Of a stretch of 64,000 bases of DNA, positions 5,703 through 45,289 are shown piece after piece; the first letter of the stretch is position 1; every line of letters begins with the position of its first letter. This DNA comes from an uncultured delta proteobacterium (GTDB lineage Bacteria; Bdellovibrionota; FAC87; UBA2466). A model generated the notes under the pieces. The model searched no databases. It worked only from the letters and a program-made list of their open reading frames with translations, and was not told the origin of the DNA. The DNA is taken from assembly GCA_963778115.1 (NCBI GenBank), contig CAVZSV010000004.1:489904-553903 (forward strand). The letters run 5' to 3'. The position numbers were made by a program, and so were the translations under genes.

Positions 5703-5836
5703 CTCCCCTCCCCTTATTGACTTTAGCGCTCCCAGTAGTAGCACCCCCTTGAAAACTAGGCGAGCGACAAATGTGCGTCTTGACCAGCTGCCCAGTCGGA
5801 CTTACTTTCGAAAGCGGCAGGAGAGGAAAAGGTCCC

Positions 5837-12953: not shown

Positions 12954-13674
12954 AATATTCGGTGGGTTTGCGCTTTTCTAACAGCTCAAGCCATCGAATC
13001 ACTTGATTGTATCCATTCAATTCGACTTCGAGCACGCGCTCAACCTTTTGCTGCAGTGGGGTCCACACCACGAGCGAAAAGAAAAGGCCATAGAAAGTGG
13101 TGAGCAACGCCAAACTCATATGAGAACCTATCTGCGAAGGATCGGAAATGGATGACAGTAGTTCCACCATGCCTAAGATGGTTCCCAACATTCCCACTGA
13201 AGGGGCTAAACGGACGCCCATACCCAAGGCCCCCATGCACTGAAACAGGTGATTGTGAGTGCGATCCCTTTCAATCTCAAGCATCTCGCGGATATCTGTA
13301 GTAGGAATACGAATGGCCATTCGATCGATGACCTTCTGCACGTAATCGGAAACGCCTTTGGTCTCCAGATCGTCGAAAGCCTTTGCCCCTTCACTGTAAA
13401 ACAGACTCCCTACACGTTGTAAAAACACGGCCTCTTTTTCATGCTTTGTCTGCCTTCTAGACGCCGAAGTTCCAAATACCCAGCGAAACGTTCGAAATAA
13501 GATCGTCCAGTCGGAGCAAGTGATAACCAAAGCAATGGGACCAAGGCCGGTAAGCACCATCGCGGGCCAGTGAAAGATCCGAAAGGCTCCCGTGGCAAAG
13601 GCAGTCCCTTCAAAGTTGTACACGACTGCGAGGCAACCCAAGAGCCCCATGAGTCCAAAGATCCGCGTTATCAT
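12895..13674 (-). CDS. motA: MotA-family stator/proton-channel protein
   Basis: 259 aa. APSVGMLGTILGMVELL...MSLALLTTFYGLFFSLVVWTPL matches the MotA/PomA channel helices. Confidence 0.75.
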   Translation of the reverse strand: MITRIFGLMGLLGCLAVVYNFEGTAFATGAFRIFHWPAMVLTGLGPIALVITCSDWTILFRTFRWVFGTSASRRQTKHEKEAVFLQRVGSLFYSEGAKAFDDLETKGVSDYVQKVIDRMAIRIPTTDIREMLEIERDRTHNHLFQCMGALGMGVRLAPSVGMLGTILGMVELLSSISDPSQIGSHMSLALLTTFYGLFFSLVVWTPLQQKVERVLEVELNGYNQVIRWLELLEKRKPTEYFADSAQIPSEETQEIRRVA

Positions 13675-15422: not shown

Positions 15423-16084
15423 TTATATCGCTCCAAGAGCGTCTTAACTTGGGGATTCGTAGGCTCAAGGGACTGCGCTTTTTCCCAGGATTTCTTGGCC
15501 AAGTCCTTTTGATTTTGGACGTACATGAGGCTACCTTTCATGATCCATCCGCGCACATAGTCAGGCTTTTTCCTTAAGATCTCTTCGACATCTTCACTTG
15601 CTTCAAAAAATTTCCCTTGGTTATAAAAATGGTTGGCTTCGATAACGAGCTTGTCCGTGTCGTCATATTCCACCACGAGGGGTGCCAGAGGAGGCAGTGA
15701 TTGCGGCTTTCGATCTTTGTCGGCTACTTTCTGAGTGTCAAAATCATCCGCGTCATCGTCGTCATCCGCATCAGCGTCCTCTTTAGACGATTTGGACTTT
15801 TTCTTGGAAGCCTCTCTTTTATGATCGGCTTTATCATCATCAGAATCATTGTCGGAGGTCGTGTTCTTACTGGGATAGACAGGCTTTAGATCAGACAAAG
15901 GAATCTCTATTTTATAGTTCCCGTTGTTCTTAAATCCGATGTCTCCTACCAAAGTCTTAGTTCCCCATGGCGTAACCAACTCTAAATTGTCGCCGGTTTC
16001 TTTCACCGAAAATTGATCAAGTGCGGAGCTATCCGCTGAAACGAGAAGTACTAAGGGCAGTAACAAGTAGCTTCTTTTTCCCAT
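15419..16084 (-). CDS. Secreted TPR-like protein with poly-acidic linker
   Basis: Signal peptide. D/K/S-rich low-complexity stretch (DADADDDDDADD). C-terminal TPR-like helices (YNQGKFFEASEDVEEILRKKPDYVRGWIMKGSL...). Confidence 0.55.
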   Translation of the reverse strand: MGKRSYLLLPLVLLVSADSSALDQFSVKETGDNLELVTPWGTKTLVGDIGFKNNGNYKIEIPLSDLKPVYPSKNTTSDNDSDDDKADHKREASKKKSKSSKEDADADDDDDADDFDTQKVADKDRKPQSLPPLAPLVVEYDDTDKLVIEANHFYNQGKFFEASEDVEEILRKKPDYVRGWIMKGSLMYVQNQKDLAKKSWEKAQSLEPTNPQVKTLLERYK

Positions 16085-16100
16085 CGTCGTGATTTCGCCG

Positions 16101-17045
16101 TTATCTTCCTAAGGAGAATCCAACATGGAATCCCGCGTATCCTTTCACTTCGTTCATGGGGTCGGTTCCCAGAGGCAGTAAATAGACCACCTCCGCTCCA
16201 AGCACCGCAAAGGATCCTAGGAACAACTCGTATGCTCCCCTGACCGCGATTCCTTTTGCCGATCCCGAAAATCCATAGCCCGCTCCAAAATCAAAGGAAT
16301 AAGCAAGGCCACTCAGTCCAAACCTCCCGTTAAAGGCCAGTGTGGGATCAATATCGATTAGAGTCGAAGGGCCTCCGGAAACCATGCCGATATCGAGGCC
16401 GCCTTTTCCAAAGCCGATGTCTTCCAAAAGGAGCACATTGGCCCCTGTCAGTACGGCAGTGCCTCCTCCATCAGAGCTTTTTGAAAGGTCCGTTCCCAGA
16501 CCGAACAGTGCCAAAAACTGAACCGCGCTATCGGAAATATTCAAAGCGGGAATCGTAAAATGCTCCGCTTGAATGACTTGCCCTTGTGGATTCGAATAGA
16601 CCACGACTTGGGCTAGCAGATTTAGACTCGTTCGATAGAGATCTACGGTGATAAAGGCTTCGACAGGATATTTGCTGCCAATCTTTTTGAGCGTCTCCTG
16701 ATCAGGAGCCCCTTTAGTGATGATGACTCTGTCGTCTTCTACCGTCAGCCTGGGAGATCGGCATTCGGAACACGATCTAACATTGGCAATTCGGCGTGCC
16801 GCCATTCCTTTTAGGATCTCGGCCTCTACCACGTCGCTAAAATCTTGTTCCAAAGGCAAATTGGAATGGACCGAAAAAATAGCCACCGATGCCGGCCGCG
16901 GTACGATCCTTGAATACCATTCAGAAATTTCATCCCCGACGGTAGCCGCCGCTTTAAATTCAGCTTCTTCGGGAGGGCGAGCGTAAGAGGAGAAGCTACC
17001 GAAGACAGAAGTCAAAAGGAGTAGAGGTAAAATAAGTTTTTTCAT
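16101..17045 (-). CDS. Secreted protein, probable outer-membrane/periplasmic scaffold
   Basis: Signal peptide MKKLILPLLLLTSVFGSFSSYA. The C-terminal half is Gly/aromatic-rich alternating strands (beta-barrel-like). First gene of the mot-containing operon. Confidence 0.5.
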   Translation of the reverse strand: MKKLILPLLLLTSVFGSFSSYARPPEEAEFKAAATVGDEISEWYSRIVPRPASVAIFSVHSNLPLEQDFSDVVEAEILKGMAARRIANVRSCSECRSPRLTVEDDRVIITKGAPDQETLKKIGSKYPVEAFITVDLYRTSLNLLAQVVVYSNPQGQVIQAEHFTIPALNISDSAVQFLALFGLGTDLSKSSDGGGTAVLTGANVLLLEDIGFGKGGLDIGMVSGGPSTLIDIDPTLAFNGRFGLSGLAYSFDFGAGYGFSGSAKGIAVRGAYELFLGSFAVLGAEVVYLLPLGTDPMNEVKGYAGFHVGFSLGR

Positions 17046-28051: not shown

Positions 28052-30355
28052 CTATTGCTGTACGCAGTAGAGAGAATACGTATACCCAGCACATCTAATG
28101 AAACCAATGGGGATCTGATCACCGGGCGCTGCGGAGTTAATAACATTGGCGTCGGTATAAGTGCTAAGACCGACAGTCATCCACACGTTGCTTGTCGCCC
28201 CGCTTGTCCATTTCGCACAGTTGTAAGTGGGGGAAGATGTCCAATCATACTGCAGACCAGTCGCTACCCAGTTAGGATTAGATGCGTTGAAGATTAGGGG
28301 ATTAATTAGAGGAAAATTAAATATTCCAGCGGCATTCGTGACACCGATTTCAAGTCCTCCGGGAGTCGTGTAAACCGTGTAAGGGGACATCACCCACCCT
28401 GTATTTTCTGATGCCCCCCCAGAGCAATTTGAGGTTGTGCAGGCGATGCGTGAACTGCCATCCGAGAGAAGTGCTTTATATGTGGCACTGCCTGAAGGCT
28501 TATTAGGATCGCTAGCACATAATGCGTCTGCGCCGCTTATGCCCCCGAAGTTTCCACTAGTGATTGTGGTTGAGGTTGTAACAAAGATCTTCTTTTGCTG
28601 CGTCACTGCCACGGTCACCGCAATGGTTTGGCTCCCGCTCCCCTGGTTTCCGGCTAAATCTTCAATGGATGACATCGCAATGGTAAGAGTCATGGATTGT
28701 CCCGCCGCACAAACTGCGGTGGAGAAAGACACGGTTATCGATGCAGTTCCGCTACCGGTGACCGAGGAGACCGTCGGGGGAGTGCTGCAGGTGCTAGCCG
28801 TAACATTAAAGTCCGAAGCGACAACATGGACCGCCTCGGAAAAGGTCAGAGCGATACTGCCAGGCATAGCGAGGACTCCAGACCCGTTCGATGTACTGGA
28901 GCTGGATAGCGTTGGTGGCGTGTTATCGACGGTAATGACCAAACTCTCCGGAGAAACGGTCGAAGGATTTCCTAGGCTATCGTGCACGGTTCCCGCATTC
29001 ACATGAACGGTAAGAGTGCCATTGCCGCTGCAGCTACTGAGCGTGATGGTGGCTCCAGCGGTCGAGATGGAACTGACCGCAACGGTGCATGACGGGTTGC
29101 CCGTCACCGGGGTAACGGTAACTCCGCCTCCCGCGGCCGTAAGGGTTCCCGTAAGCACTGTGCCACCGGAGACTGAAGCGACGTAGGTTAAGGCTATAGT
29201 CGATGTTGCTGCAGAATTGATGTCCGTACTACTGGGGTTCGCCAGATTGGCGGATGGACCACTGGTGTCAACCGAGTAGGTGTTAGTTACCGAAGATCCC
29301 GTCCCGCTATTTCCGACCAAGTCCGTAATGGAAGCCGGGTTTACCGTAACGGTTAAGTGTTGCCCATTGGCGCACGTCCCCCCGCTGAGAGCTGCGGTGG
29401 CAACCATACTGCTACTCATGGCAACTGAAGAAACGGTCGGTGCGGTAGTGCAACTCCCCCCTAAAACAAATTTCGAGGTGCTAACCGTAGTCACGGCCTT
29501 ACTAAATGTGGCAACTAGGGTAGTGGGAACTGGATTCACCGTTCCCGTCGCCGGGGCAAGTGTTACTAGTGTGGGACCCGTGTTATCGACGGTAATAATC
29601 GAACTCTCCGGGGAAACGGTCGATGGATTCCCCTCGCTGTCTTGAACGGTCCCCGCATTTACGTGAACGGTAAGGGTGCCATTACCGCTGCAGTTACTCA
29701 GCGTAATGGTAGCTCCCTCAGTGGAGAGGGAACTGACCGCGACGGTGCTGCACAACGGGTTCCCAGTCACCGTCGTCAGGCTAACTCCGCCCCCCGTGGC
29801 AGTAAGGGTCCCCGTTAGCGTTGTGCCTCCGGAAACTGAAGCCGTGAAGGCCACGGGAATGGTTGAGGAACCCGAGGAATTTAAGGTCGTATTACTGGGC
29901 AACCCCAAACTGGCGGACGGCCCCCCCGTATTTACGGTAAATGTTTTGGCAACCGCAGACCCGGTGCCAGCAATTCCAAGTGCATTCGTAACTTTGGTGG
30001 GGTCGAGAGTTACACCAAGACTTTGGCCGTTCGTGCAACTTCCTCCGGTTAAAGTAGCCGTCGCCACGGTGTTACCACTGCTCATAGCGACGGAGGAAAC
30101 CGTCGGCGCCGTCGAACAGGTGCCTCCAATCGTAAATGCCGATGTCGAAATCGTGCTCATGACCTGACTAAAAGTTGCAATAACTGAAGTGGGAGTCGGA
30201 TTTACATATCCGCCCGCGGGCAGCAAAGTAATAAGCGTTGGAGCTGTTTGATTGACAAGCAACGGAGTAGTGGAACGCGTGCAACCGAACAAAAATAAAG
30301 TTGAAGTCCCAAGCAATAATAGGAATACCTGATACGGGGCCCGGAGAATACGCAT
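28052..30355 (-). CDS. Surface lipoprotein with tandem Ig-like repeat modules and a DUF1554-like C-terminal domain (putative adhesin)
   Basis: 767 aa. Signal plus LFGC lipobox. Two ~220-aa near-identical modules and a third degenerate one (Thr/Ser/Gly/Val-rich, each ending VDNTxPT). The C-terminus KKIFVTTSTT..GNFGGISGADALC...YKALLSDG resembles DUF1554. Confidence 0.7.
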   Translation of the reverse strand: MRILRAPYQVFLLLLGTSTLFLFGCTRSTTPLLVNQTAPTLITLLPAGGYVNPTPTSVIATFSQVMSTISTSAFTIGGTCSTAPTVSSVAMSSGNTVATATLTGGSCTNGQSLGVTLDPTKVTNALGIAGTGSAVAKTFTVNTGGPSASLGLPSNTTLNSSGSSTIPVAFTASVSGGTTLTGTLTATGGGVSLTTVTGNPLCSTVAVSSLSTEGATITLSNCSGNGTLTVHVNAGTVQDSEGNPSTVSPESSIITVDNTGPTLVTLAPATGTVNPVPTTLVATFSKAVTTVSTSKFVLGGSCTTAPTVSSVAMSSSMVATAALSGGTCANGQHLTVTVNPASITDLVGNSGTGSSVTNTYSVDTSGPSANLANPSSTDINSAATSTIALTYVASVSGGTVLTGTLTAAGGGVTVTPVTGNPSCTVAVSSISTAGATITLSSCSGNGTLTVHVNAGTVHDSLGNPSTVSPESLVITVDNTPPTLSSSSTSNGSGVLAMPGSIALTFSEAVHVVASDFNVTASTCSTPPTVSSVTGSGTASITVSFSTAVCAAGQSMTLTIAMSSIEDLAGNQGSGSQTIAVTVAVTQQKKIFVTTSTTITSGNFGGISGADALCASDPNKPSGSATYKALLSDGSSRIACTTSNCSGGASENTGWVMSPYTVYTTPGGLEIGVTNAAGIFNFPLINPLIFNASNPNWVATGLQYDWTSSPTYNCAKWTSGATSNVWMTVGLSTYTDANVINSAAPGDQIPIGFIRCAGYTYSLYCVQQ
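28915..30235. repeat. Intragenic ~660-bp tandem duplication (2 copies)
   Basis: Example: TGTTATCGACGGTAAT..CTCTCCGG.GAAACGGTCGA at 28921 and 29581. The protein modules are collinear. Confidence 0.7.
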
Positions 30356-30698: not shown

Positions 30699-30740
30699 TC
30701 GGGGTGGCCGGATTTGAACCGGCGACCTCTTCGTCCCGAA
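30699..30740. repeat. Island attachment-site repeat (distal copy, partial tRNA-Pro 3' portion)
   Basis: The 42 nt TCGGGGTGGCCGGATTTGAACCGGCGACCTCTTCGTCCCGAA are identical to 45216-45257. Confidence 0.85.
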
Positions 30741-30869: not shown

Positions 30870-30892
30870 TTTGGACTTAAGGTGGACTTACG
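30870..30892 (+). promoter_or_regulatory. 23-bp repeat TTTGGACTTAAGGTGGACTTACG (candidate integrase arm-type site), copy 1
   Basis: Identical copy at 45145-45167 in the same orientation. Contains an internal GGACTTA x2. Ends 13 nt before the int ATG. Confidence 0.4.
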
Positions 30893-30905
30893 GAGTGGGG
30901 ACACC

Positions 30906-32177
30906 ATGAAAGCAAAGATTGGGAACCGCCTTTTAGACTCCCTGAAAACCGAAGCGAAGGCGTACGAAGTGTGTGATACCGAACTTGCGGGCTTCATGGT
31001 CCGCGTCCAACCCTCCGGTGCAATGACATATATATGCAGCTACCGGCTTAAGGACGGACGCCGCCAGAGGATGACGCTCGGGAGAACATCGCTCTTCACT
31101 CCTACCCAAGCACGTGACTGGGCCTTCTCTATTATGGCCGACGTGAGAAAAGGATTGGATCCGGCGTCCTCCAGAAAAACTGCGAAGGCAGAATCGCTCC
31201 TAATTTTCCTGGACGAGATATACGGACCGTGGGTATCGGCCCATCGAAAAAGAGGCAAGGAAACGCTTAAGCGCCTTAAATCCTATTTTTCAGATTTTCT
31301 GCGAAAGCCCATATGTGAGATCACGCCGTGGGCAATTGAAAAGTGGCGCACCCAAAAACGAAAAGACGGATTGAAGCCGATCAGCGTAAACCGCGAGTTG
31401 TCCGCTCTGAGATCCGCTCTGTCTAAGGCTGTAGAGTGGGGGCTGATCGAGACCCATCCTTTGGCGAAGGTAAAACCCTTCAAAACGGACAAGAAAGGAA
31501 TCGTCCGCTACCTAAGTGAAGAGGAAGAGGGCCGTCTGCGCATTGCACTGGATGATCGTGAAGAGAAGCTGCGCGTTGCTAGAGATAGTGCGAATGAATG
31601 GAGGAGGATCCGCGACTATCCTGAATATCCGAACTTACGCAGCCAATACTTTGCTGATTATCTGAAACCACTGGTCATCCTATCAATTAACACCGGACTG
31701 AGACGAGGCGAGCTTCTCAGTTTGTCGTGGCGGAACGTCGACTTTACCCGATCCGTACTAACGGTAGCTGGGACCGCAGCTAAGAGCGGAAGTACACGCC
31801 ACATTCCTCTGAATAAAGAGGCTCGACTTCTTCTCGGAGAATGGAAACATCAGCACCCCACCTTGCCCGACGCGTTTCTATTCACGAACGGAAGCGGCGA
31901 GCGGCTTGGTGAACTAAGGAAATCATGGCATAGCCTTCTGGCGCGCGCAAAGATCGAGAATTTTCGATGGCACGACTTGAGACACCACTTCGCAAGCAAG
32001 CTCGTCATGGCAGGGGTTGATCTAAATACCGTAAGAGAGCTTCTTGGGCACGCCGATATTACGATGACCCTGCGCTACGCCCACTTAGCCCCCCACATTA
32101 CAGCAGCAGCCGTAGAAAAAATTCAGTGGCAGCCGAAACCCCTTCAAGCTTTGGAACCCACTTGTGCCGAAGCCTAA
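30906..32177 (+). CDS. int: Tyrosine recombinase/integrase, P4-like with DUF4102 arm-binding N-terminus
   Basis: The N-terminus AYEVCDTELAGFMVRVQPSGAMTYICSYRLKDGRRQRMTLG is DUF4102-like. Catalytic blocks RRGELLSL, WHDLRHHFAS, LLGHADITMTLRYAH. ATG 30906 follows a GGAG; the ORF track starts at GTG 30882. Confidence 0.9.
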   Translation: MKAKIGNRLLDSLKTEAKAYEVCDTELAGFMVRVQPSGAMTYICSYRLKDGRRQRMTLGRTSLFTPTQARDWAFSIMADVRKGLDPASSRKTAKAESLLIFLDEIYGPWVSAHRKRGKETLKRLKSYFSDFLRKPICEITPWAIEKWRTQKRKDGLKPISVNRELSALRSALSKAVEWGLIETHPLAKVKPFKTDKKGIVRYLSEEEEGRLRIALDDREEKLRVARDSANEWRRIRDYPEYPNLRSQYFADYLKPLVILSINTGLRRGELLSLSWRNVDFTRSVLTVAGTAAKSGSTRHIPLNKEARLLLGEWKHQHPTLPDAFLFTNGSGERLGELRKSWHSLLARAKIENFRWHDLRHHFASKLVMAGVDLNTVRELLGHADITMTLRYAHLAPHITAAAVEKIQWQPKPLQALEPTCAEA

Positions 32178-33110: not shown

Positions 33111-33329
33111 ATGGTACCAAAATCAATCTTCAACGAAAAAGAGGCCGCCGAATACCTGGGGCTCTCACCCTCCACATTGAGACAAAGTCGATTTCACGGA
33201 AAAAGAGAAAAACACTTACCTCCTCCACCGTTTATCAAAGTAGGAAGGTGCATTAGATACCTAAGAAATGACCTAGACTTATGGCTAAATAAACATCGAA
33301 TTGAGCAACAAGAAGGTCAGAGCCGATGA
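33111..33329 (+). CDS. AlpA/excisionase-like helix-turn-helix regulator
   Basis: 72 aa. EAAEYLGLSPSTLRQSR...FIKVGRCIRYLRNDLDLWL is an HTH_17/AlpA pattern. ATGA overlap with the primase gene. Confidence 0.7.
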   Translation: MVPKSIFNEKEAAEYLGLSPSTLRQSRFHGKREKHLPPPPFIKVGRCIRYLRNDLDLWLNKHRIEQQEGQSR

Positions 33330-35797
33330 AGCACATCGATGAAGCTCTATCCGAAATTAAGCAAAGAGGCTATCAACTCCAGAGCATTGAGCCAGATGGA
33401 ATTATTCACCGTTTCGGTCCGAAACTAGCGCAATGGTATGTAGCTTATGAAAATCAAAATCAGAACGGCGTCCCATACATCGTAGTGACCTATGGCGACT
33501 GGCGCACCGAAGAAAAACTTACTTTCACTACAGGGAAGCTCGAACTAGCACCGCAAGATAGATCTCGTATCCGGGAGCAGATCGACGTAAGTAAAGTTGA
33601 AGCAGAGAAAGCACGAGAGGATTTGCAGACTGAGATTGCTATCGAATGCGAACAAAAATGGGAATCTCTGGCCGCAGAAGGAGATTCTCCCTATTTCGGC
33701 CGAAAACAAATCACGGGACCGCTCGGTGCCAGATTTGACGGACAAACAATATGCGTCCCGTGTCGAGACATTGATGGGAAAATTTGGTCTCTTCAGCACA
33801 TCAATCCGGATGGTAGCAAATATTTTTCCCGCTCGGGAAAAGTAAGAGGGCACTTTCACGTCATCGGAGACTTGGAGCACTCTTCAACGTTCTATATAGG
33901 AGAGGGATTCGCCACTATGGCTTCGGTGCATATCGCCATGCGGCGCACATGCATCGTCGCTTTTAACTCCGGTAATCTCATCCATGTCGCGCAAACGATA
34001 AAGGAGCGCTATCCCGATAGCCAACTCGTAATTTGTGGCGATGACGATAGATGGACAAAAAAAACCGACGGCACCTTCCACAATATAGGAAGGATTAAGG
34101 CAAAAAAAGCAGCAAAAGAGACGAAGTCGCTCGTGGTATTTCCAAAATTTTCCGATTCCACATCCAAGCCTACCGACTTTAACGACCTTTACTGCCTTGA
34201 AGGAATAGAGGCCGTCATCGAACAACTAACGCTAGATGTAGAAAATCCCACTCAAAAGGAAAAGCCACCCTCGCAAGCCACGATCCTAATCGCACTCTGC
34301 CGAACTATTGATCTGTTTCATTCGCCGGATGGAGACGCGTATGCGACATTTGAAGTCGGTAACCACAAGGAGACTTGGGCATTGAAAAGTAAGGGATTCA
34401 GGGAATGGCTCTCGCGACAATATTACTTAAATGAACGAGCCGCCCCAAGTTCCCAGGCAATGCAGGACGCTTTAGGGGTATTGTCAGCCAAGGCAAATTT
34501 CGATGGGGACGAGATACCGGTCTTCCTTCGAATAGCCAAGCACGAAGGAAACATTTACCTCGACCTTTGCAACGCCGATTGGGAAGTAGTTGAAATAACC
34601 TCAACCGGATGGAATGTAATTTCTAACTCGCCGGTCAGGTTTCAAAGGTCAAAAGGAATGCTGCCCATCTCTTCCCCCGAGCACGTCGAATGCGCCACAG
34701 GCGTCACAGAGTTACAAAGTTTCCTGAATGTGGAAACGAAAGATGACTTCATGTTGTTACTTGCCTGGTTAGTGAGTGCATACAATCCTGATGGGCCATA
34801 TCTGGTGCTCGTTTTGTATGGCGAGCAAGGTTCTGCCAAGAGCACAACCGTAAAGCTTCTGCGTTCACTGATAGACCCGCACGCTTGTCCCTTACGTCGG
34901 GAGCCACGTAACTCCGATGACCTAATGGTCTCCGCTAGGAGCAATTGGACGGTTGTGATCGATAATATGTCTCACTTACCGGATGGTTTATCGGACGATT
35001 TCTGCCGCCTTGCCACGGGTGGGGGGCTTTCCAAGCGTCAGCACTACTCCAATGACGAAGAAATCATTTTGAATGCTAAGCGTCCGATAATCTTGAATGG
35101 CATCGACGAATTTGTAACTCGCGGTGACCTTACCAGCCGTTCAATTACAATCAGTCTACCTTCCATCCCAGAGGCGGAACGTAAGCGTGAGGAGATAATT
35201 AGGAAGGAATTTTCGGAAGCCCAGCAACGATTCTTAGGACTGGTCCTCAATGCAATTTCAACATCCCTGGCGAACAAGGACAAATTCGAGTTAGAGAAGG
35301 TGCCGCGTATGGCGGACGCTTGGCATTTCATCACCGCTGCTGAAACGGCCTTTGGTTGGGAGCGCGGTCTATCGCTGAAAGCATTTCTCGCGAATCAAGA
35401 GAAGGCCAACGAAGTCATTCTTAATAATTCAATCGTTTACCCCTACATTTTCGCTTTAGCAGGAGATGGCTGGGAGGGGACTGCCACAGAACTTCTCGAC
35501 AGGATGAACATTATGCGGAGCGCAACTCAATGCAAAGATTATAAGACTTGGCCGACGATCCCCAAATCTTTGTCAGATCGAATTCGTAGGATCAATCCGG
35601 CTCTACGAAGCTCCGGAATCGAAGTAATCTTTGATAAGACGTCTGGCAACGATTCAAAACGAATGATTCACATCAAAAAATTATCGAACCACTGCGACGC
35701 CAGCGACGCTTCGACGCAACCTAATCGAAATGGCGACGCATGCGTCGAACACGTCGAAAAAAAACGTGAAACTTCTGAAGAGCGATTTGACATATGA
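33326..35797 (+). CDS. Bifunctional primase-helicase (Toprim domain + P-loop NTPase; P4 alpha / DUF927-like)
   Basis: Toprim block YIGEGFATMASV...VICGDDDRW. Walker A LYGEQGSAKST. Walker B-like VVIDNMSH. Confidence 0.8.
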   Translation: MKHIDEALSEIKQRGYQLQSIEPDGIIHRFGPKLAQWYVAYENQNQNGVPYIVVTYGDWRTEEKLTFTTGKLELAPQDRSRIREQIDVSKVEAEKAREDLQTEIAIECEQKWESLAAEGDSPYFGRKQITGPLGARFDGQTICVPCRDIDGKIWSLQHINPDGSKYFSRSGKVRGHFHVIGDLEHSSTFYIGEGFATMASVHIAMRRTCIVAFNSGNLIHVAQTIKERYPDSQLVICGDDDRWTKKTDGTFHNIGRIKAKKAAKETKSLVVFPKFSDSTSKPTDFNDLYCLEGIEAVIEQLTLDVENPTQKEKPPSQATILIALCRTIDLFHSPDGDAYATFEVGNHKETWALKSKGFREWLSRQYYLNERAAPSSQAMQDALGVLSAKANFDGDEIPVFLRIAKHEGNIYLDLCNADWEVVEITSTGWNVISNSPVRFQRSKGMLPISSPEHVECATGVTELQSFLNVETKDDFMLLLAWLVSAYNPDGPYLVLVLYGEQGSAKSTTVKLLRSLIDPHACPLRREPRNSDDLMVSARSNWTVVIDNMSHLPDGLSDDFCRLATGGGLSKRQHYSNDEEIILNAKRPIILNGIDEFVTRGDLTSRSITISLPSIPEAERKREEIIRKEFSEAQQRFLGLVLNAISTSLANKDKFELEKVPRMADAWHFITAAETAFGWERGLSLKAFLANQEKANEVILNNSIVYPYIFALAGDGWEGTATELLDRMNIMRSATQCKDYKTWPTIPKSLSDRIRRINPALRSSGIEVIFDKTSGNDSKRMIHIKKLSNHCDASDASTQPNRNGDACVEHVEKKRETSEERFDI

Positions 35798-36295: not shown

Positions 36296-36907
36296 CTATT
36301 TCGATTCTCGCTTCGAAATTTCAACTGGCTGCGTTGGTCCCGCCATCTGCCATATCTCTTCGAACCTATCTCGATACCGCTTAACAATCTCCGGATTGGC
36401 AATATAAATCTGGTTCTCGTTGTTCGCTTTGCTAGCGTGATTAGTGAAATTGAATGACCCGGTTTCGATCATCCGCCCGTCTACGATGGCAAATTTATTG
36501 TGCATGATGCCTCGCTGCCGACCAGAACGAACATTTGCCCCTGCTTTAATCAGTAACGGCACTAAGGAATGTAGACCCTTTGCTTGGCGGGTATCCACGA
36601 TTATGCGTACCTGTAGCTTCTTAGAAGCCAGTAGGAGCTGATGCACAAGTTGGTCCAAATTTATGTCGTAGATAGCGATGTCGACGGATTTCTGTGCCAT
36701 TTCGATAAACTTAATAAGCTTCAAGTCACATGGCTCTTCGGGAGAAAAACAAACTTCCCCATCTTTTGGAGGCGTAATCACTTTACTGAGGGTCCCCTCT
36801 TCCACTTTATCAACGACGCCCGCCCCATTCCCGGCAAAAGTGAGATTTGGTGACAATAGTAAGGACAGAAAGTTCAGGACGAAAAAAACAAATGATCCCA
36901 TTTTCAT
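36296..36907 (-). CDS. nuc: Secreted phospholipase-D-family endonuclease (Nuc-like, single HKD)
   Basis: HKD motif MHNKFAIVDG plus GSFNFT. Signal peptide MKMGSFVFFVLNFLSLLLSPNLTFA. Start M13 of the tracked ORF forms an ATGA overlap with the upstream RHH gene. Confidence 0.8.
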   Translation of the reverse strand: MKMGSFVFFVLNFLSLLLSPNLTFAGNGAGVVDKVEEGTLSKVITPPKDGEVCFSPEEPCDLKLIKFIEMAQKSVDIAIYDINLDQLVHQLLLASKKLQVRIIVDTRQAKGLHSLVPLLIKAGANVRSGRQRGIMHNKFAIVDGRMIETGSFNFTNHASKANNENQIYIANPEIVKRYRDRFEEIWQMAGPTQPVEISKRESK

Positions 36908-37107
36908 TTTCCGCGCTCCTTCTCTATCTGTTTCCGGCTCCATATAACAAATTGATCCAGCGCTGTCTGAATAACGTCAGTCGTTGTCCATCCGTATTCA
37001 TCGGCAAGCGCGTCCAATGCCTTCATTAGGCGGACCGGTAGCCGCATTGACATCATTTTCTTTTCTCCCTGAGTAAACTCTCTTTTTGGTAGATTAAACT
37101 TTGCCAC
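36904..37107 (-). CDS. Ribbon-helix-helix (CopG/Arc-like) regulator
   Basis: 67 aa. MSMRLPVRLMKALDALADEYGWTTTDVIQTALDQFV is an RHH pattern. GTG start preceded by AAGGAGA. Confidence 0.6.
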   Translation of the reverse strand: MAKFNLPKREFTQGEKKMMSMRLPVRLMKALDALADEYGWTTTDVIQTALDQFVIWSRKQIEKERGK

Positions 37108-38924: not shown

Positions 38925-39278
38925 TTAGCTAGGCCCAGGAATAGTCGGTCCAGGCGGATAGTCGTATTCAACGAATGTATCTGGGGAGGAATCACTCACG
39001 TTCCAAATTATCTTAACCGTCGCTGGGGGAGCTTCCTGCTTAACCGCTTCCTGCTCGACGAAGGGTCTTCTTTTCGGAAAGAGGTAAGCCATAAGCTCAA
39101 TCAATATGTCGGCTTGCTTTTCCTTTGAAAGGTCGGGAAGAAGCTGAATTAGTCGACTTGGTACGTTAAAACTAAGCTCCTCCAGTGCCTGACTTAGAAG
39201 TTCAGATTTATGGTTTGGAGAACCTTTACGCCTTCCACTTCCTAGTGGCTTCCTCTGGCCAAGCTGAAACTTACCCAT
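38925..39278 (-). CDS. Hypothetical protein with basic GRRKGSPN N-terminus
   Basis: Start taken at MGKFQLGQRKPLGSGRRKGSPNHK (a phage-type basic motif). The tracked ORF to 39446 would collide with the divergent 39398 gene. Confidence 0.45.
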   Translation of the reverse strand: MGKFQLGQRKPLGSGRRKGSPNHKSELLSQALEELSFNVPSRLIQLLPDLSKEKQADILIELMAYLFPKRRPFVEQEAVKQEAPPATVKIIWNVSDSSPDTFVEYDYPPGPTIPGPS

Positions 39279-39397
39279 ACCGCTATCTTGCACTACTTTA
39301 GTGGACGCTTCTATGGAAACCTGGCCTGCCAAGGTCCAATTGCAGAAAATAAGATTTCTTGAGTGAAGACTTCTTGGGTGAAGTCCGATTAGAGTGA

Positions 39398-39796
39398 ATG
39401 GCAAAACAAAAGAAGAATCAGAATCGTTTACGGCGCAGCGTTTCACGCAGCTTGAAGGACTGTGGTTTTACGGTGACGGAGCGAAAAAAACTGCCCGGTG
39501 CGACAAAAACGGCAGGCGTTGACGTAATTGCGAAACGTAACAAGAGCTTTTATTTAGTTGCACGTTTTCAAGAACGAGCCGGTACTGCCGAACAAAAAAT
39601 CCCATATTTGTTTCTGCGTCTTGAGGAATTACTGGCGCGAGATAGGAAAATCAGACGAGCCTTCGTCGTTTTGGGAGGAGGTGGATGGACACTCCTTTCC
39701 TACTTTAGAGGAGTGTTGCGACGGCTTCACTCAAATCGTAAGATTGTTCTCGTAAAGCAAGCGGACTTATCGAAGTATCTCAAGAAAGCGGCATAG
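39398..39796 (+). CDS. Small basic protein, possible minimal PD-(D/E)xK-like nuclease
   Basis: 132 aa. GVDVIAKRNKSFYLVARFQERAGTAEQKIPY has a D...QE...EQK spacing reminiscent of restriction-endonuclease-fold cores. Low certainty. Confidence 0.45.
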   Translation: MAKQKKNQNRLRRSVSRSLKDCGFTVTERKKLPGATKTAGVDVIAKRNKSFYLVARFQERAGTAEQKIPYLFLRLEELLARDRKIRRAFVVLGGGGWTLLSYFRGVLRRLHSNRKIVLVKQADLSKYLKKAA

Positions 39797-39859
39797 GCAG
39801 ACCCGCTTCGATTTTTGGAGTAATCGCGCCACCAAGCTGATCCATCGCCGAGAAATGAC

Positions 39860-41521
39860 ATGATCTTGAATGTCCCCCCTCCTCTATCCTTTCTTGAGGC
39901 ACTCCTGGCACAGACCCAATCAATGGGTCATAAGAGTTGTGACGTACGATTCGCCGTGATCCATTCAGTCCTTCAAGGAAGTCAACACTCGTACCGGTTG
40001 ATTGCCTTTTTCGGGTGTTTAACAAAGGATGAGCCTTTAACCCCGTCTATTTCGCCGCTTGGTTCGTGTAAACTTAAAGACAATCGCTCTGCAAAACTAT
40101 TTCGAGCATCATTTAGTCTTTCAGACCTAAGAACGCTTGCGCATTCCATTTCGACCAGCACGCTTCAACTTCCGCAAGCCCCAGCCGCACATTGTCTCAT
40201 TGAGCACAATTTCGATCTAAAAGACATAAAGCCACTAAGCTTTATCGCGGCCGATAACCGCAATAGCGGGAGGCTTACGTTCCTTCCGTACCCGGGTTCA
40301 AGCCTCCATATGTTTGAGATATTTGACCTTAACAAGGAGGTATTAAAAGGACTAGATTCCGACGATCTAACTAGAATCGACAAACTATTTCGTGCGCACA
40401 CAGATTTCTCTCCCTTATGGAATACATCGACAATCGGCAATCTATTAATTGTGGCTAACCTGGAACCCATTAAGATTGAATTCACCGGAGATAAGAATGG
40501 CGAAGGCATCCGGATAATGTTAGTTCCTGAAAACCCGAAGTATGACCCTAAGGATTACGTGCTTACCATCACTTCTGAAGCATCCGACGAGGTGAATGGC
40601 AGCTCTGTTATTTTCCCAATTCCTCATAGTATTCACTTGCCCAACATTTCCAAAAGAGCAACGATCGATGCACGGCTTTGGCAAATCAGTACCGCAAAGT
40701 TAGTTTCTAGAAATCACGGAGCAGTATTTAACAATGTGTCGATATCAATTTCAACTTTTGAAAAACTCCGAACGGGTTACATCCGAGACAAACACGGAAA
40801 GGTACTTCGTGATGGTCCGGTTAGATCGCCTGTTCCTCTCCACCACTCCGGAATCAACAAAATAAGTTGGTCAGAACACATTCAAAGAGAACTTCTCGAC
40901 GCACAGAAAAGAAATTTAATCGCTACAAAGAAACTTATTCCCTATCGGGAGGGAATGCACTTAAAAGCCCTAAATGATGTTGTGGATCTGATTAACTCAG
41001 CGCCCAGCATAGGTCCCGTCAAGATCTGGGATCCCTATTTAGACGATTACTATCTAGACTTTTTAACTTTCATGACGAGTACCAGAGAAGTACGTATTCT
41101 AAGTGCCCTCCGCTCCCCTTCTAAAGACGACCGACAAAAGCTTAAACGTTTCAGCAAAGCATTTGAGAGTTGTCTAAATGACTACAGTAAACGTTTACCG
41201 AAACCGCTTCGCGTGAGATGGGAGGAATACCAAAAACGGAAGTCCGACGAACGTTTCCAAAATAAACAGAAAAGATGGACACAATATCTAAATGAATTAA
41301 GAGCCAATAAACTCAATATATTCTTTCGCTATAACGCTAGAGGTAAGGGTTTTAAATTCCATGATAGATTTCTTATCGCAGGAGGACGATGCTGGTCACT
41401 TGGCACCTCATTGAACCATATCGGCAATAGTCACAGTTTAATAATCGAACTTCAATACCCAGAACTGGTCGAAAACGAATTTGATGCCCTCTGGAAAGAA
41501 GTAGAAGGAAACGACTTGTGA
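39860..41521 (+). CDS. 553-aa protein with unknown N-terminal region and C-terminal PLD-fold/MIT_C-like domain (H-x-R variant)
   Basis: The C-terminal block is VKIWDPYLDDYYLDFL...NIFFRYNARGKGFKFHDRFLIAGGRCWSLGTSLNHIGNSHSLIIEL. Reminiscent of VPA1262/MIT_C-type proteins. Confidence 0.6.
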   Translation: MILNVPPPLSFLEALLAQTQSMGHKSCDVRFAVIHSVLQGSQHSYRLIAFFGCLTKDEPLTPSISPLGSCKLKDNRSAKLFRASFSLSDLRTLAHSISTSTLQLPQAPAAHCLIEHNFDLKDIKPLSFIAADNRNSGRLTFLPYPGSSLHMFEIFDLNKEVLKGLDSDDLTRIDKLFRAHTDFSPLWNTSTIGNLLIVANLEPIKIEFTGDKNGEGIRIMLVPENPKYDPKDYVLTITSEASDEVNGSSVIFPIPHSIHLPNISKRATIDARLWQISTAKLVSRNHGAVFNNVSISISTFEKLRTGYIRDKHGKVLRDGPVRSPVPLHHSGINKISWSEHIQRELLDAQKRNLIATKKLIPYREGMHLKALNDVVDLINSAPSIGPVKIWDPYLDDYYLDFLTFMTSTREVRILSALRSPSKDDRQKLKRFSKAFESCLNDYSKRLPKPLRVRWEEYQKRKSDERFQNKQKRWTQYLNELRANKLNIFFRYNARGKGFKFHDRFLIAGGRCWSLGTSLNHIGNSHSLIIELQYPELVENEFDALWKEVEGNDL

Positions 41522-43314
41522 AAAAGATAGGGATGAAAAAGCACGAAGAACGCATCCTTTCTAAAGTAGGAATGTTATTCAAGAACGTCCCGTCGATTTT
41601 ACGTAACCAAATCGGGGGACTTCTGATTCAAGAACCGCTACTTAAATCTACTAATTTGCCTAAGGAGCTGAGACAGGGCCTAGAAAAATACGATCTTATA
41701 GAGGCATACCAGAGCAAAACTAACGAAATCCCCAACACCTCGATCCCTGCCAACGTAGCAGCGGCACAAAAATTCATAGATCTTTGCAAGGTAGAGATGT
41801 CCTTGGATTCATCGCCATTGCATGAAGTTGCTCAATTTTACATGGTGAGCGGGAAAGCGTCGTTAGAATCCTGGCTAACTTCGATCGAAGAAAAATTGAA
41901 ACTCGAACCGTTAGAATCGATCGTATCCAGTACCCACGATTTTATTGGGCCACATAACGTTAAGTTCGAATCTGAGGCCATTCAAAAAGGGCGTGATCTC
42001 ATCTCGCAAGGACGAGATCTCGAATCCTATTCTAAAAGTTTCGGCTACATTTCGGCGCAGCCCTCCGGTCCGGGATGGGAAATGTTAACAATCCTTGCAA
42101 GGTATAGACCTTCTGCATTGTCGTCTTTCCTCTCTAGGATCCACGATCCCATCGCCCGTATATATCTAAAGCTGAACATAGAAAACAATAAGTGGCCTTA
42201 TCATCTTGGAATCGAATTGATTCGTTCAATGAAGAGGCCAGCCATTTGCATGGGACTGGAGATCTGCCTCAATAGGCTGGAACGGATTTCATTTCTATAC
42301 GCTAAATCTACACCAAATTCCCTAAACAAGAGGCACCAAATAAACGCTCGAAGAGCGGCGACTTTAACAGGTCTATATTCAAATTTGTGGTCGGAAATCG
42401 AACGAAGTAAATTAGTTACAGAAGGGATAGACCTATTAAGGGTAGCCCGCAATTTCAAAGTTCAGCTTCATCACTCTAATCCGACTTTCAATAACGACAT
42501 CATAGGCATTTCCTTGTCCGAATTCTTTAATCTAGGCGGCCGGTTGATCTCCAAAGACAATTCGTTGCTGCGATCCCTATTCACATTGCCAGAACATCAT
42601 GGAGTAACCTTTGAACTTTCCATTCGTTGGCTAGGTACTTTCGCACTCAGCAAAAGTTCTAGTAAGCACTCGGACAAAGAGATCGGCGACCTACTCAAAG
42701 AATTGATGGATCTCTTTTTCTCAGAACTTCAAAAACCGGAAAATCAATTTCGTTTCCTATTAAACAACCAACAATCTCTGAACACTATAAATGCTTGGGT
42801 AGATCTCTTTAGAGGCGGAGTGTCGTTCTTCGACCAAGACACAATCACACAAAAATTCGAGTTTATATTTAAGCGGCTTAAACAGCAGCTTGTTAACCGT
42901 TGGCACGCCTCAAGCATTCCTTATGGGACGGAGGATGCTTTGACCTATGCGTGCGTTGTTTACCTTTATTCAAGCACCTTAACCTCTCAGTACCAAGCTT
43001 CAACGATTCATCACGTACTTCATGTATTAGAAGGAATACGTCCCAAGCAATCTTCGGCGAGAGGAAGTTGGCAGGCTATTCTCAATACCCTTGAGGGACA
43101 TCTCGAAGATCCCAAGGTTGTATCATTTACCGAAAACTCATTCCTCCGCGATGGAATCTCGCCCGATTTTCTTGCGGTAATACCACTAGTATTCTTTGTT
43201 CAAAACCCATCCTGGAAAAAGCGGGCGACGGAACTTGTTTCGAACTACGCAAACTATTTTTCAGAATTAATCGACCAATTCAAAGAGCAACTTAAGGAGA
43301 GAGGCCTCACTTAA
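41518..43314 (+). CDS. 598-aa predicted all-helical protein, no recognisable motif
   Basis: Long ORF with a GTG start in a GTGA overlap with the upstream stop, indicating translational coupling. Confidence 0.6.
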   Translation: MKKIGMKKHEERILSKVGMLFKNVPSILRNQIGGLLIQEPLLKSTNLPKELRQGLEKYDLIEAYQSKTNEIPNTSIPANVAAAQKFIDLCKVEMSLDSSPLHEVAQFYMVSGKASLESWLTSIEEKLKLEPLESIVSSTHDFIGPHNVKFESEAIQKGRDLISQGRDLESYSKSFGYISAQPSGPGWEMLTILARYRPSALSSFLSRIHDPIARIYLKLNIENNKWPYHLGIELIRSMKRPAICMGLEICLNRLERISFLYAKSTPNSLNKRHQINARRAATLTGLYSNLWSEIERSKLVTEGIDLLRVARNFKVQLHHSNPTFNNDIIGISLSEFFNLGGRLISKDNSLLRSLFTLPEHHGVTFELSIRWLGTFALSKSSSKHSDKEIGDLLKELMDLFFSELQKPENQFRFLLNNQQSLNTINAWVDLFRGGVSFFDQDTITQKFEFIFKRLKQQLVNRWHASSIPYGTEDALTYACVVYLYSSTLTSQYQASTIHHVLHVLEGIRPKQSSARGSWQAILNTLEGHLEDPKVVSFTENSFLRDGISPDFLAVIPLVFFVQNPSWKKRATELVSNYANYFSELIDQFKEQLKERGLT

Positions 43315-43333: not shown

Positions 43334-45145
43334 CTACCCATCGCTATCCAAATTAAATTCAGCCACCGCATCTTTCCCCATCATGTAACTAACACTGTAT
43401 TCTAGCGCTCGATTAAACGCGTCGCGCAGTTCTGGAACGAAACCTTTCTTATCCCTTGCGGATAGGCGCTTGAACCATTGTTTAAATGACGGCATCAGAC
43501 CGTCGACCCTTGCAAGCTCTCCGAAATTTGGTTGATTGAAATACTTAGTCAGAGATTCAAATAGGCCCTCGTTTTCACGGATAGCGACGAAAGATGAAAG
43601 TTCCTCGGCATCTATGATGTGCCAACCTTGAAACCGATGCCGATTTTCACAGTACCATTGCCATTCCTCCGGCTCTAGCTCCTCCTCACAATTCTTCTCA
43701 ATACTTTCTCTAAAAGGGTTACCTCGAAAGACGGCTGGCATCAGCGAAGACACACCAAGTAAAATAAACTTATTGCACCCGAGGATCCTCTCACTAGTCT
43801 TGCGGTTCTCGGGGTTTAAACGACTTTCCCCGTGCGCTTTTTCTAATCGATATATAAATCGGATACTCTTCCAAATGGATTCCCCGAGCCCCTTTGCTAC
43901 ATCTCTTTCAAAGCTATCCAGGTCGAAGCCAAAAAAGGAACCGGGAGAGAGCCTTTTCAATTTTACGCCAATCAAAACAGCAGCGTCGTTTTCAAAAACC
44001 ACTAAGTCCGACCCCAAATCCTTTTTGGCGTCTCCAACAAAAGGCTCATATTCGTACGAGATATTCTCCGGCAGGGCGATTTTGCCGATTAGAAAACGAA
44101 TCAGGCGTTCAAGACGTTTTCCCATCCAATCATTGAACTGATTCGTATGCGGAGAAGAAGACCCGCGAGCAGAGGCATCCTTTCGCGCTAGTTCCAATGC
44201 CTCGAAGAGGGGACCGCTTCCAACGTGCATTCTCAAGAAGGGGTGAAGGGGGTATAAGTACCAATCTTTGGCAATTCGAACAAATGGCTTCCTAGAATAA
44301 AATCCCAGGATCAAACCCTCCGCCTCATAAGAGGCAAAATGTTTCTCTAAGATCTGTCCCGTCTCTTCTATCGCGGAACTTTTATTTTCCAGGATACGCT
44401 CAAAGACTTTTATCAATTTATCTTTATCTGGTGAATTCCGGAAAACTCTCTCCGGAACGCATGTAGGTTCTTTTAGCGACATGGTCCATGCACCAAATAG
44501 GAGGCTGAAGTAGTCTCTAGTCGTTACACCATATTCTTCCGCAAAAAGAGGATCAAAGATCGAGGAACGAGAAGGAAGAATCGGCTGAAAATCGTCTAGA
44601 TCAAGTAAATAGGCAACAATGGCAATTTGATGAACCAGACTTGCCGTCATTACGGATTCTGCGGCCAACATACGCAATGCCATAAGGCGCGCTTCCCGCT
44701 GCTTTTCATCAGCCGTACGCGCCGCCAACATTTTAGAAGATTCCAAACCATAACTAAGCTTTACGATCGGTTCCAATTCCGCGAGAGGGATTGGTAAGAA
44801 ATTGCTCTCGATTGGTATAGGTGCGCGGACGTTGGCCAGTGCACCGAGGATTATGCCTCCCAAATGCAAAGTGGTGTAGGTCTCTTTCTTGCTAATCCCG
44901 CTCATAGGATCAATGTCTTCTTCCCCTATGCGAGTAAGATCGATGGCCAGTCGGGCCTGATCGTATCCCGTAGCGGCTATCTTCTCCGCCAGTGTCTGAA
45001 AGGACATTTGATCAACATTTGAGGTTAACTTCACTCTCGTTCGAGTATTTCTCGCAGATGTTTTGGGTGGAGTTTTATCCAAACAACACTTCTTATATTT
45101 TCTTCCGCTGCCACAGAAGCAAGGGGCATTCCGGCGATACTTCAT
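43334..45145 (-). CDS. 603-aa protein with N-terminal SEC-C metal-binding motif and possible degenerate PD-(D/E)xK core
   Basis: N-terminus MKYRRNAPCFCGSGRKYKKCC. Internal GSDLVVFENDAAVLIGVKLKR resembles nuclease beta-strands with E replaced by G. Confidence 0.6.
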   Translation of the reverse strand: MKYRRNAPCFCGSGRKYKKCCLDKTPPKTSARNTRTRVKLTSNVDQMSFQTLAEKIAATGYDQARLAIDLTRIGEEDIDPMSGISKKETYTTLHLGGIILGALANVRAPIPIESNFLPIPLAELEPIVKLSYGLESSKMLAARTADEKQREARLMALRMLAAESVMTASLVHQIAIVAYLLDLDDFQPILPSRSSIFDPLFAEEYGVTTRDYFSLLFGAWTMSLKEPTCVPERVFRNSPDKDKLIKVFERILENKSSAIEETGQILEKHFASYEAEGLILGFYSRKPFVRIAKDWYLYPLHPFLRMHVGSGPLFEALELARKDASARGSSSPHTNQFNDWMGKRLERLIRFLIGKIALPENISYEYEPFVGDAKKDLGSDLVVFENDAAVLIGVKLKRLSPGSFFGFDLDSFERDVAKGLGESIWKSIRFIYRLEKAHGESRLNPENRKTSERILGCNKFILLGVSSLMPAVFRGNPFRESIEKNCEEELEPEEWQWYCENRHRFQGWHIIDAEELSSFVAIRENEGLFESLTKYFNQPNFGELARVDGLMPSFKQWFKRLSARDKKGFVPELRDAFNRALEYSVSYMMGKDAVAEFNLDSDG

Positions 45146-45167
45146 TTGGACTTAAGGTGGACTTACG
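45145..45167 (+). promoter_or_regulatory. 23-bp repeat TTTGGACTTAAGGTGGACTTACG, copy 2
   Basis: Identical to 30870-30892. Abuts the SEC-C gene start and lies 49 nt inside the tRNA-proximal att repeat. Confidence 0.4.
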
Positions 45168-45212
45168 AAGTTTTTCTCGTTTTACTTTCCCTCAGCAACC
45201 CATTGAAATTAC

Positions 45213-45279
<67 letters not shown>

Positions 45280-45289
<10 letters not shown>

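Follow-up and report, generated by a model that had tools for sequence, protein, structure and literature searches.

The best-described relatives of the locus examined here are the full-length VPA1262 proteins (~1026 amino acids), which were named Juno in August 2026 (bioRxiv 10.64898/2026.08.01.741415) and two of which protected more than 100-fold against T4, λ-vir and two BASEL phages. As the preprint presents it, Juno is a single polypeptide of ~1000 amino acids that acts alone and is carried by mobile elements and in defence hotspots (GMT islands and the variable regions of Pantoea); a member has to cover at least 70% of the Juno profile, and the passages that deal with Juno/VPA1262 propose no mechanism and describe no split forms. 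PDC-S05 of the PADLOC database, which has one segment in common with the locus, is a group of single proteins of ~300 amino acids with no partner gene; protection against T7, T5 and T4 was reported for one member (bioRxiv 10.1101/2024.09.26.614923), and the validated member was described as a RhuM-domain protein. The locus that we compare with these lies in a stretch of 64,000 nucleotides (the window; positions 489,904 to 553,903 of contig CAVZSV010000004.1, assembly GCA_963778115.1) from an uncultured delta proteobacterium of the Bdellovibrionota, and it consists of two adjoining genes, B and C, preceded on the same strand by a third gene, A (Table 1). We favour, with guarded confidence, a reading in which B and C make up a conflict module of two translationally coupled genes, most likely anti-phage, that is cargo of a 14.5-kb tRNA-Pro element; B would be an effector of the phospholipase D (PLD) type and C its partner, and the pair would be a split relative of VPA1262/Juno.

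An earlier note on this DNA, made from its letters, had described three same-strand open reading frames (ORFs) of 132, 553 and 598 amino acids, with a gap of 63 nt after the first (39797-39859) and a GTGA overlap between the last two, and all of these are present as described. The tetranucleotide is shared by the TGA stop of B (41519-41521) and the GTG start of C (41518-41520), and a Shine-Dalgarno-like AGGA is located 7-8 nt 5' of the GTG. An alternative public gene call begins C at an ATG 15 nt downstream, which yields a protein of 593 amino acids; B and C are tightly coupled whichever start holds. No terminator-like sites were found on the plus strand between A, B and C. The peptides IWDPYLDDYYLDFL and KFHDRFLIAGGRCWSLGTSLNHIGNSHSLIIEL both occur in the translation of B. 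The GC content of the cassette is 43.6%, about six standard deviations below that of flanking chromosome windows of equal size (49.6 +/- 1.0%, minimum 47.4%). Judged by comparison with other genomes, B and C are real genes and not chance ORFs, because full-length homologues of each are found in conserved synteny.

By its profile match protein B is a member of the VPA1262_N family, the VPA1262-type relationship that the earlier note had suspected. It scores 85.7 bits against NF040700, the model of the VPA1262 N-terminal domain (curated cutoff 80; E = 2.8e-24), with residues 123-547 aligned to profile positions 58-478 of 478. The plasmid genes matched by B in tblastn searches are annotated as 'VPA1262 family N-terminal domain-containing protein', and plasmid genes of this kind are found in Alpha-, Beta-, Gamma- and Epsilonproteobacteria and in Bacillus. 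B can be divided into a family-specific N-terminal region (~1-340) and a PLD-like C-terminal domain with an H-x-R motif (~360-553). Conservation within the family extends over the N-terminal ~340 residues, for which no match was found in Pfam or in PDB sequence searches; the latter, with B and the family profile as queries, returned noise only. Word-indexed homology searches with B, C and a 12-sequence N-domain profile returned the query alone. A search of species-representative genomes and JGI metagenomes with the B-subfamily alignment yielded no loci, and the B clade is therefore rare.

The C-terminal domain of B carries an HKD-like signature of the PLD type. In an alignment of 17 B-family sequences assembled by similarity, residues D391, P392, H501, D502, R503, W512, G515, S517 and G522 are invariant, and the family motif can be written as H-D-R-[FL]-x7-W-x2-G-x-S-[LF]-N-x-[IV]-G. 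Compared with the canonical H-x-K-x4-D-x6-G-S-x-N, it has Arg in place of Lys and one residue extra; the Asp at position +7 of the signature is replaced by Gly in the B clade and is kept in other clades. B ends 52 residues past His501. Over the segment from WDPY to HDR, three homologues of B with the same H-D-R pass the Pfam PLDc_2 threshold of 27 bits (38.7, 33.1 and 30.5 bits). In a profile alignment the FHDRF of B falls in register with the MHNKF of a Nuc-like PLD protein encoded on the same island, at an hhalign probability of only 3.6%. These two results agree with the C-terminal PLD/HKD unit with H-x-R that the earlier note had proposed. Its association of this unit with MIT_C (Pfam PF16565, MITD1-type) was rejected: neither B nor any of its 16 homologues matches MIT_C at E <= 1, and no MITD1 chains appeared in the PDB sequence searches.

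Protein C could be placed in no family of Pfam, NCBIfam, PADLOC or PHROGs. When 1.84 billion representative proteins were scanned exhaustively with HMMER, only three relatives were recovered, all of them full-length (591-613 amino acids, 22-33% identity). An AlphaFold2 (AF2) model built from the resulting four-sequence alignment is all-helical and confident, with a predicted local distance difference test (pLDDT) score of 78.7 and a predicted template modelling (pTM) score of 0.70. Its best PDB fold matches in Foldseek are solenoids of the HEAT type (importin-beta, karyopherin, cohesin-SA), which are weak (E >= 0.011, TM 0.2-0.28); none of the matches resembles an enzyme, and a viral structure library gave no match. 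As modelled, C is an alpha-solenoid that lies outside recognizable families and has no catalytic motif. Searches of 2,365 ORFs with a C hidden Markov model (HMM) and jackhmmer found no further relatives, and tblastn on plasmids found no match; as far as sequence similarity reaches, the C family is confined to the B clade, with four known loci.

In order to see which genes travel together, we examined the neighborhoods of these relatives. All three C relatives are encoded directly downstream of a same-strand B homologue (514-557 amino acids). The junction is a 4-nt overlap in loci L009 and L012-L014 and a 26-nt gap in L011. The upstream genes in L009, L011 and L012 are 35-44% identical to B over their full length, and each passes NF040700. 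Identities to B are 43-44%, 39% and 35% and identities to C are 33%, 23% and 22%, in the same order of loci, so the divergence ranks of the two proteins agree across the three loci. L009 has an integrase, an excisionase-like HTH gene, an FtsK-like gene and a gene for a TIR-effector-like protein nearby (11213-12100, minus strand; 1.8e-08). L011 has a resolvase, a CI-like repressor and a D5-type primase, and L012 has a homologue of Avs2 (AVAST type 2) 3 kb away (12770-16720, minus strand; E = 3.7e-166). Plasmid copies of VPA1262_N genes adjoin CBASS, restriction endonucleases, a type I R subunit, SIR2 and a reverse transcriptase. The conserved unit, by these comparisons, is B plus C, because A, the gene D that follows C, and the other genes of the island have no relatives (E <= 1) in the related loci L001-L019. 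A conflict or defence role of B-C is likely, because its homologues are always adjacent to each other and sit on mobile elements, in one case next to Avs2 and in another near a TIR-like gene; the earlier note had supposed such a role and had named co-occurrence across genomes, with defence genes close by, as the check, and three of three relatives show this adjacency.

The arrangement of B and C is found in a much larger group of VPA1262_N loci. We converted the invariant motif into a degenerate DNA pattern of fixed spacing, which has one match in the window and none in 100 shuffles, with ~0.03 matches expected across the whole collection. The scan identified 173 loci; 110 of them come from metagenomes and 63 from species-representative genomes that span many phyla. 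The motif-bearing ORF ends no more than 150 residues past the His in all 173 loci (40-114 in the 63 genome loci), and there are no fused, single-ORF forms among them; tblastn of plasmids with gammaproteobacterial N-domain queries likewise returned split forms only. For loci with at least 2.7 kb of downstream sequence, which we regarded as informative, a partner was defined as a same-strand gene of at least 400 amino acids within the next two genes. Such a partner is present in 83 of 88 informative loci (29 of 32 from genomes, 54 of 56 from metagenomes), and coupled same-strand downstream genes are present at all 13 plasmid VPA1262_N loci. These loci share with B-C the gene order, the N-domain motifs, the tight coupling (often a 4- or 8-nt overlap, the former also in Rhizobium and Gluconobacter plasmid pairs) and a large helix-rich partner; their partners belong to other families, of ~450-557, ~594-696 or ~436 amino acids, and three-gene forms add a second H-D-R PLD unit of ~210 amino acids. 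In L004, a plasmid locus of Bradyrhizobium barranii, the VPA1262_N gene and its partner are separated by the precisely placed insertion of an IS630-family transposase (5388-6452), which probably uncouples them.

The partners can be grouped by sequence. The first set contains the families "big" (~634-696 amino acids, 20 members), "p595" (~594-659 amino acids, 12 members) and "p436" (~436 amino acids, 4 members), together with "mid" (~200-230 amino acids, 24 members), whose members carry an H-D-R PLD motif of their own. Cluster II (~449-557 amino acids, 6 members) comes from the plasmid loci L001-L004, L007 and L008, and the C family (4 members) completes the groups. Profile-profile comparison revealed no relationship among partner families except between "big" and "p595" (hhalign 97.5%), and C reached a probability of no more than 0.6% against any of the partner families. 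At this level of comparison there are at least four partner families without sequence similarity to one another. In 96 of 100 comparisons a locus had the same partner type as its nearest N-domain relative; partner type tracks the N-domain clade, the pattern expected of physically interacting, co-evolving subunits. The N proteins nearest to B outside its clade (L189, L159 and L061) have partners of ~750, 725 and 456 amino acids that belong to none of the defined families, so further partner families exist. In three-gene relatives (L064, L033, L026) the "mid" protein, encoded directly downstream of the VPA1262_N gene, reads ...YIHDRFAIIDxELWHFGxTVGG...; this second H-D-R suggests a heterodimeric active site with two His residues, one of them from the N-domain protein. 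The B clade has no "mid" gene. Split pairs and triplets of VPA1262_N genes, as annotated by PGAP, are not described as a system in the literature that was searched.

With PADLOC-DB v2.0 component HMMs, applied alone and without system rules, A and C have no match and B has only a partial match to PDC-S05 (E = 6e-5, profile positions 251-297 of 306); relatives of B reach 1e-11 over positions ~160-300. The N proteins of the wider family give partial PDC-S05 matches through the PLD segment as well, and their partners are unmatched. B shares the C-terminal PLD(HxR) segment with PDC-S05, but PDC-S05 proteins lack the partner that B has, and membership of B was rejected because the match is partial and limited to that domain. 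The PLD nuclease effectors DrmC of DISARM, MkoC of Mokosh and NsnC of Menshen, with Nuc and BfiI as prototypes, have in common with B the HKD-type pattern H-x-[KR]-x4-(D)-x6-G-x-S-x-N, with one motif per chain. B differs in having Arg for the canonical Lys and, as in its whole clade, in lacking the +7 Asp, and the N-terminal ~340 residues of B and its partner are unrelated to those systems; B matches none of the three models, and one relative of B matches NsnC weakly. The scans agree with the view that the locus does not correspond to Zorya, Gabija, Septu, Hachiman, Shedu, Kiwa, Lamassu, Thoeris, BREX or DISARM. Its description as an unassigned candidate for a new system has to be given up, since B falls within a family curated by NCBI, the fused members of which (Juno) are reported as anti-phage in the 2026 preprint. 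B-C is likely a split variant, with a clade-specific solenoid partner, of the already described VPA1262/Juno family.

Under the reading that we favour, B would be the effector. Each chain contains a single H-x-R...G-x-S-x-N signature, and a dimer would therefore build one active site, by analogy with the one-motif PLD nucleases Nuc and BfiI, which dimerise to form theirs. The dimer would then cut nucleic acid, the most likely target because PLD nucleases are many in defence systems; a role in lipid chemistry or a non-catalytic role may also be considered for B, given the change from Lys to Arg. C, whose translation is coupled to that of B, is probably a binding partner of B and would either sense a phage cue or restrain B. 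In three-gene relatives the second H-D-R protein of ~210 amino acids could supply the second half-site, and in Juno the region of ~500 amino acids after the same PLD domain sits in one polypeptide. The logic would be analogous to that of Avs/AVAST, in which a helical-repeat scaffold for phage cues is coupled to a nuclease; Avs is a single chain with a STAND ATPase, whereas B-C has no nucleoside triphosphatase. An anti-phage function is suggested by the Juno phenotype together with the genomic context.

Several observations weigh against this reading. The Arg for Lys and the Gly at +7 make the catalytic competence of B uncertain. B itself gives no match to Pfam PLDc_2, and its single-sequence AF2 model is unusable (pLDDT 32); for both reasons its presumed PLD fold is derived from relatives and from the motif. 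No similarity could be detected between C and either the C-terminal half of VPA1262 or the other partner families, and what makes the pair a 'split Juno' is consequently gene order only.

The last point bears on the strongest competing explanation, namely that B-C is an ordinary split Juno, in which C is a true homologue of the ~500-residue C-terminal region of VPA1262 that has diverged past recognition and the system has been cut into two ORFs. Many systems occur in both fused and split forms. In NF040699, the full-length VPA1262 model (1026 positions, cutoff 325 bits), the H-D-R region lies at ~452-526, so that ~500 amino acids follow the PLD unit in full-length members, exactly where the partner genes sit, and B and C together amount to 1151 amino acids. 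Yet B has no match to NF040699 at E <= 1, a close relative of B reaches 21 bits over the PLD segment only, and there is likewise no match for C (E <= 1) or for its relatives P0003 and P0005 and eight other partners (E <= 10). The partner families are mutually unrelated apart from "big" and "p595", and the 173 loci of the motif scan include no fused form. Juno resembles B in its NF040700 domain, H-D-R unit included, and in its mobile-element and hotspot setting, but B stops ~50 residues past the PLD motif and is followed by a separate coupled gene, and it falls short of both the NF040699 cutoff and the coverage of at least 70% on which the preprint defines Juno. We regard true homology of C to the VPA1262 C-terminal region as rather doubtful.

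It is considerably less probable that the pair is an addiction or stabilisation module, with B as a toxic PLD enzyme and C as its protein antidote, or that B is a PLD protein of another kind, directed at lipids or membranes or only binding, as eukaryotic MITD1. Tight coupling, residence on mobile elements and lineage-specific co-diversification would fit toxin-antidote pairs as well, the change from Lys to Arg leaves the chemistry ambiguous, and the PLD superfamily includes lipid enzymes and non-catalytic binders. The neighbours of these loci are, however, enriched for bona fide defence genes, C at 598 amino acids far exceeds the typical size of an antitoxin, and along with the missing MIT_C matches the Pfam and NCBIfam scans of the B locus found no transmembrane or lipid-related domain. 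Fused relatives expressed alone protect against phages, according to the Juno preprint.

Gene A encodes a very basic protein (isoelectric point 11.3; 33 Lys and Arg against 9 Asp and Glu) that passes the gathering threshold of the Pfam family PDDEXK_11 (29.9 bits against 23.7, residues 34-98) and is for this reason taken as a real gene. Both features, the basic character and a possible restriction-endonuclease fold, had been noticed before. A also matches phrog_6124, a family of unknown function, and otherwise matches, weakly, only hypothetical proteins of T4-like cyanophages. An antisense ORF of 173 amino acids overlaps the start of A by 49 nt; it is absent from the public gene calls of the contig and is probably spurious. 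A three-gene system, in which A would be co-transcribed with B and C and serve as a second nuclease or a DNA-binding regulator, is the least probable of the explanations considered: A lies on the same strand 63 nt from B with no terminator-like site before it, has its PDDEXK_11 match, and may be co-transcribed with B and C, and at one plasmid locus the gene immediately before the VPA1262_N gene encodes a 'restriction endonuclease', but A has no relative in loci L001-L019, which include the three B-C relatives and the 13 plasmid loci (E <= 1), or in the 173 scan loci (E <= 1e-3), the upstream genes of related loci differ (a 66-aa ORF, an opposite-strand zinc-ribbon gene, a peptidase fragment, DUF2971 and others), and the only relatives of A are the cyanophage proteins. 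By this comparison A is a same-strand neighbour outside the conserved module. Of the picture drawn in the earlier note, then, VPA1262 and PLD(HxR), PD-(D/E)XK, the island and the likely conflict role are retained, and the three-gene unit, the unassigned status and MIT_C are not.

The locus is carried by an island of 14.5 kb whose ends are a perfect 42-nt direct repeat corresponding to the 3' half of tRNA-Pro(CGG). This repeat, the integrase, the primase and the low GC content confirm the A+T-rich cargo of a tRNA-integrated island that had been recognized from the sequence. The island also encodes an HTH_3 protein and the Nuc-like PLDc_2 protein mentioned above, which has the classical HxK and matches the PADLOC DrmC models (1.3e-08); it is a separate, stand-alone PLD nuclease in the same cargo, because other DISARM components are not present. 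A short ORF overlaps the upstream side of its gene. Gene D converges on C, with the stop codons 19 nt apart, adjoins the tRNA-Pro attachment (att) site and may be another cargo gene. A SEC-C metal-binding motif (Pfam 1.8e-08) at the N terminus is the only recognizable feature of its product. Neither D nor the other island genes have a relative (E <= 1) in related loci L001-L019, and in the 173 motif-selected loci (E <= 1e-3) D has only a 20-residue match to the SEC-C motif, in L044. Just within both island ends is a 27-nt direct repeat (96% identical), which reads TTTGGACTTAAGGTGGACTTACG[G/A]AGT and contains GGACTTA twice; the two copies may be arm-type binding sites of the integrase. The chromosomal flank contains a gene for a surface-type protein with Big_5 and DUF1554 domains, the latter of which we take to be typical of Leptospira-like spirochaetes; within this gene a 182-nt segment is repeated with 82% identity, 660 nt apart.

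Table 1. Positions in the window of the B-C locus, its motifs, the surrounding island and the adjoining chromosome.
Feature	Position	Strand	Remarks
A (132 aa)	39398-39796	+	very basic PD-(D/E)XK-type protein; PDDEXK_11 match
B (553 aa)	39860-41521	+	VPA1262 N-terminal-domain family; NF040700 match
C (598 aa)	41518-43314	+	all-alpha solenoid-like partner; predicted model, AF2
GTGA overlap, B stop/C start	41518-41521	+	direct reading; translational coupling
W-D-P-Y motif of B, residues 390-393	41027-41038	+	start of PLD-like domain; D391, P392 invariant, Y393 nearly so, in 17 members
HKD-like signature of B, Arg for Lys	41360-41424	+	H501-D-R503-F-x7-W512-x2-G515-x-S517-L-N519-x-I-G522
Antisense ORF (173 aa)	38925-39446	-	overlaps start of A
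att repeat, tRNA-distal island end	30699-30740		perfect 42-nt repeat of 45216-45257
tRNA-Pro(CGG)	45213-45289	-	3' half (45216-45257) is the other att repeat
27-nt direct repeat, first copy	30870-30896		just within island end
27-nt direct repeat, second copy	45145-45171		just within island end
Tyrosine integrase	30882-32177	+	Phage_integrase 1.3e-29, plus Arm-DNA-bind_3
Toprim primase	33326-35797		context gene of island
Nuc-like PLDc_2 protein (215 aa)	36296-36943	-	classical HxK
ORF (67 aa)	36904-37107	-	overlaps upstream side of Nuc-like PLDc_2 gene
D (603 aa)	43334-45145	-	N-terminal SEC-C motif
Big_5/DUF1554 surface-type protein (767 aa)	28052-30355	-	chromosomal flank
Internal 182-nt repeat, first copy	28907-29088		within 767-aa protein gene
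Internal 182-nt repeat, second copy	29567-29748		within 767-aa protein gene

The comparison of B-C with its relatives indicates that the N-terminal module of Juno is a PLD-type unit with an invariant H-x-R, that it occurs far more often in split, coupled operons of two or three genes, and that it pairs with several families of large, helical, sequence-unrelated and co-diversifying partners. We tentatively extend this to a more general scheme, in which the VPA1262_N PLD(HxR) would be the constant effector of a large and hitherto unrecognized modular immune superfamily and the interchangeable, fast-diversifying helical partners would be its phage-specificity sensors; at least four partner families would each co-diversify with their own N-domain clade, Juno would be a fused tip of this tree, and C would represent a new sensor family with four loci. 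About 200 such loci are visible to current defence-annotation HMMs only as partial PDC-S05 matches. The B-C clade itself is rare, and its value lies in the architecture and not in the single locus. Juno has only just been reported, in the preprint as a single-gene system to which no mechanism is assigned, and the B-C locus and its relatives offer testable mechanistic handles on this family.

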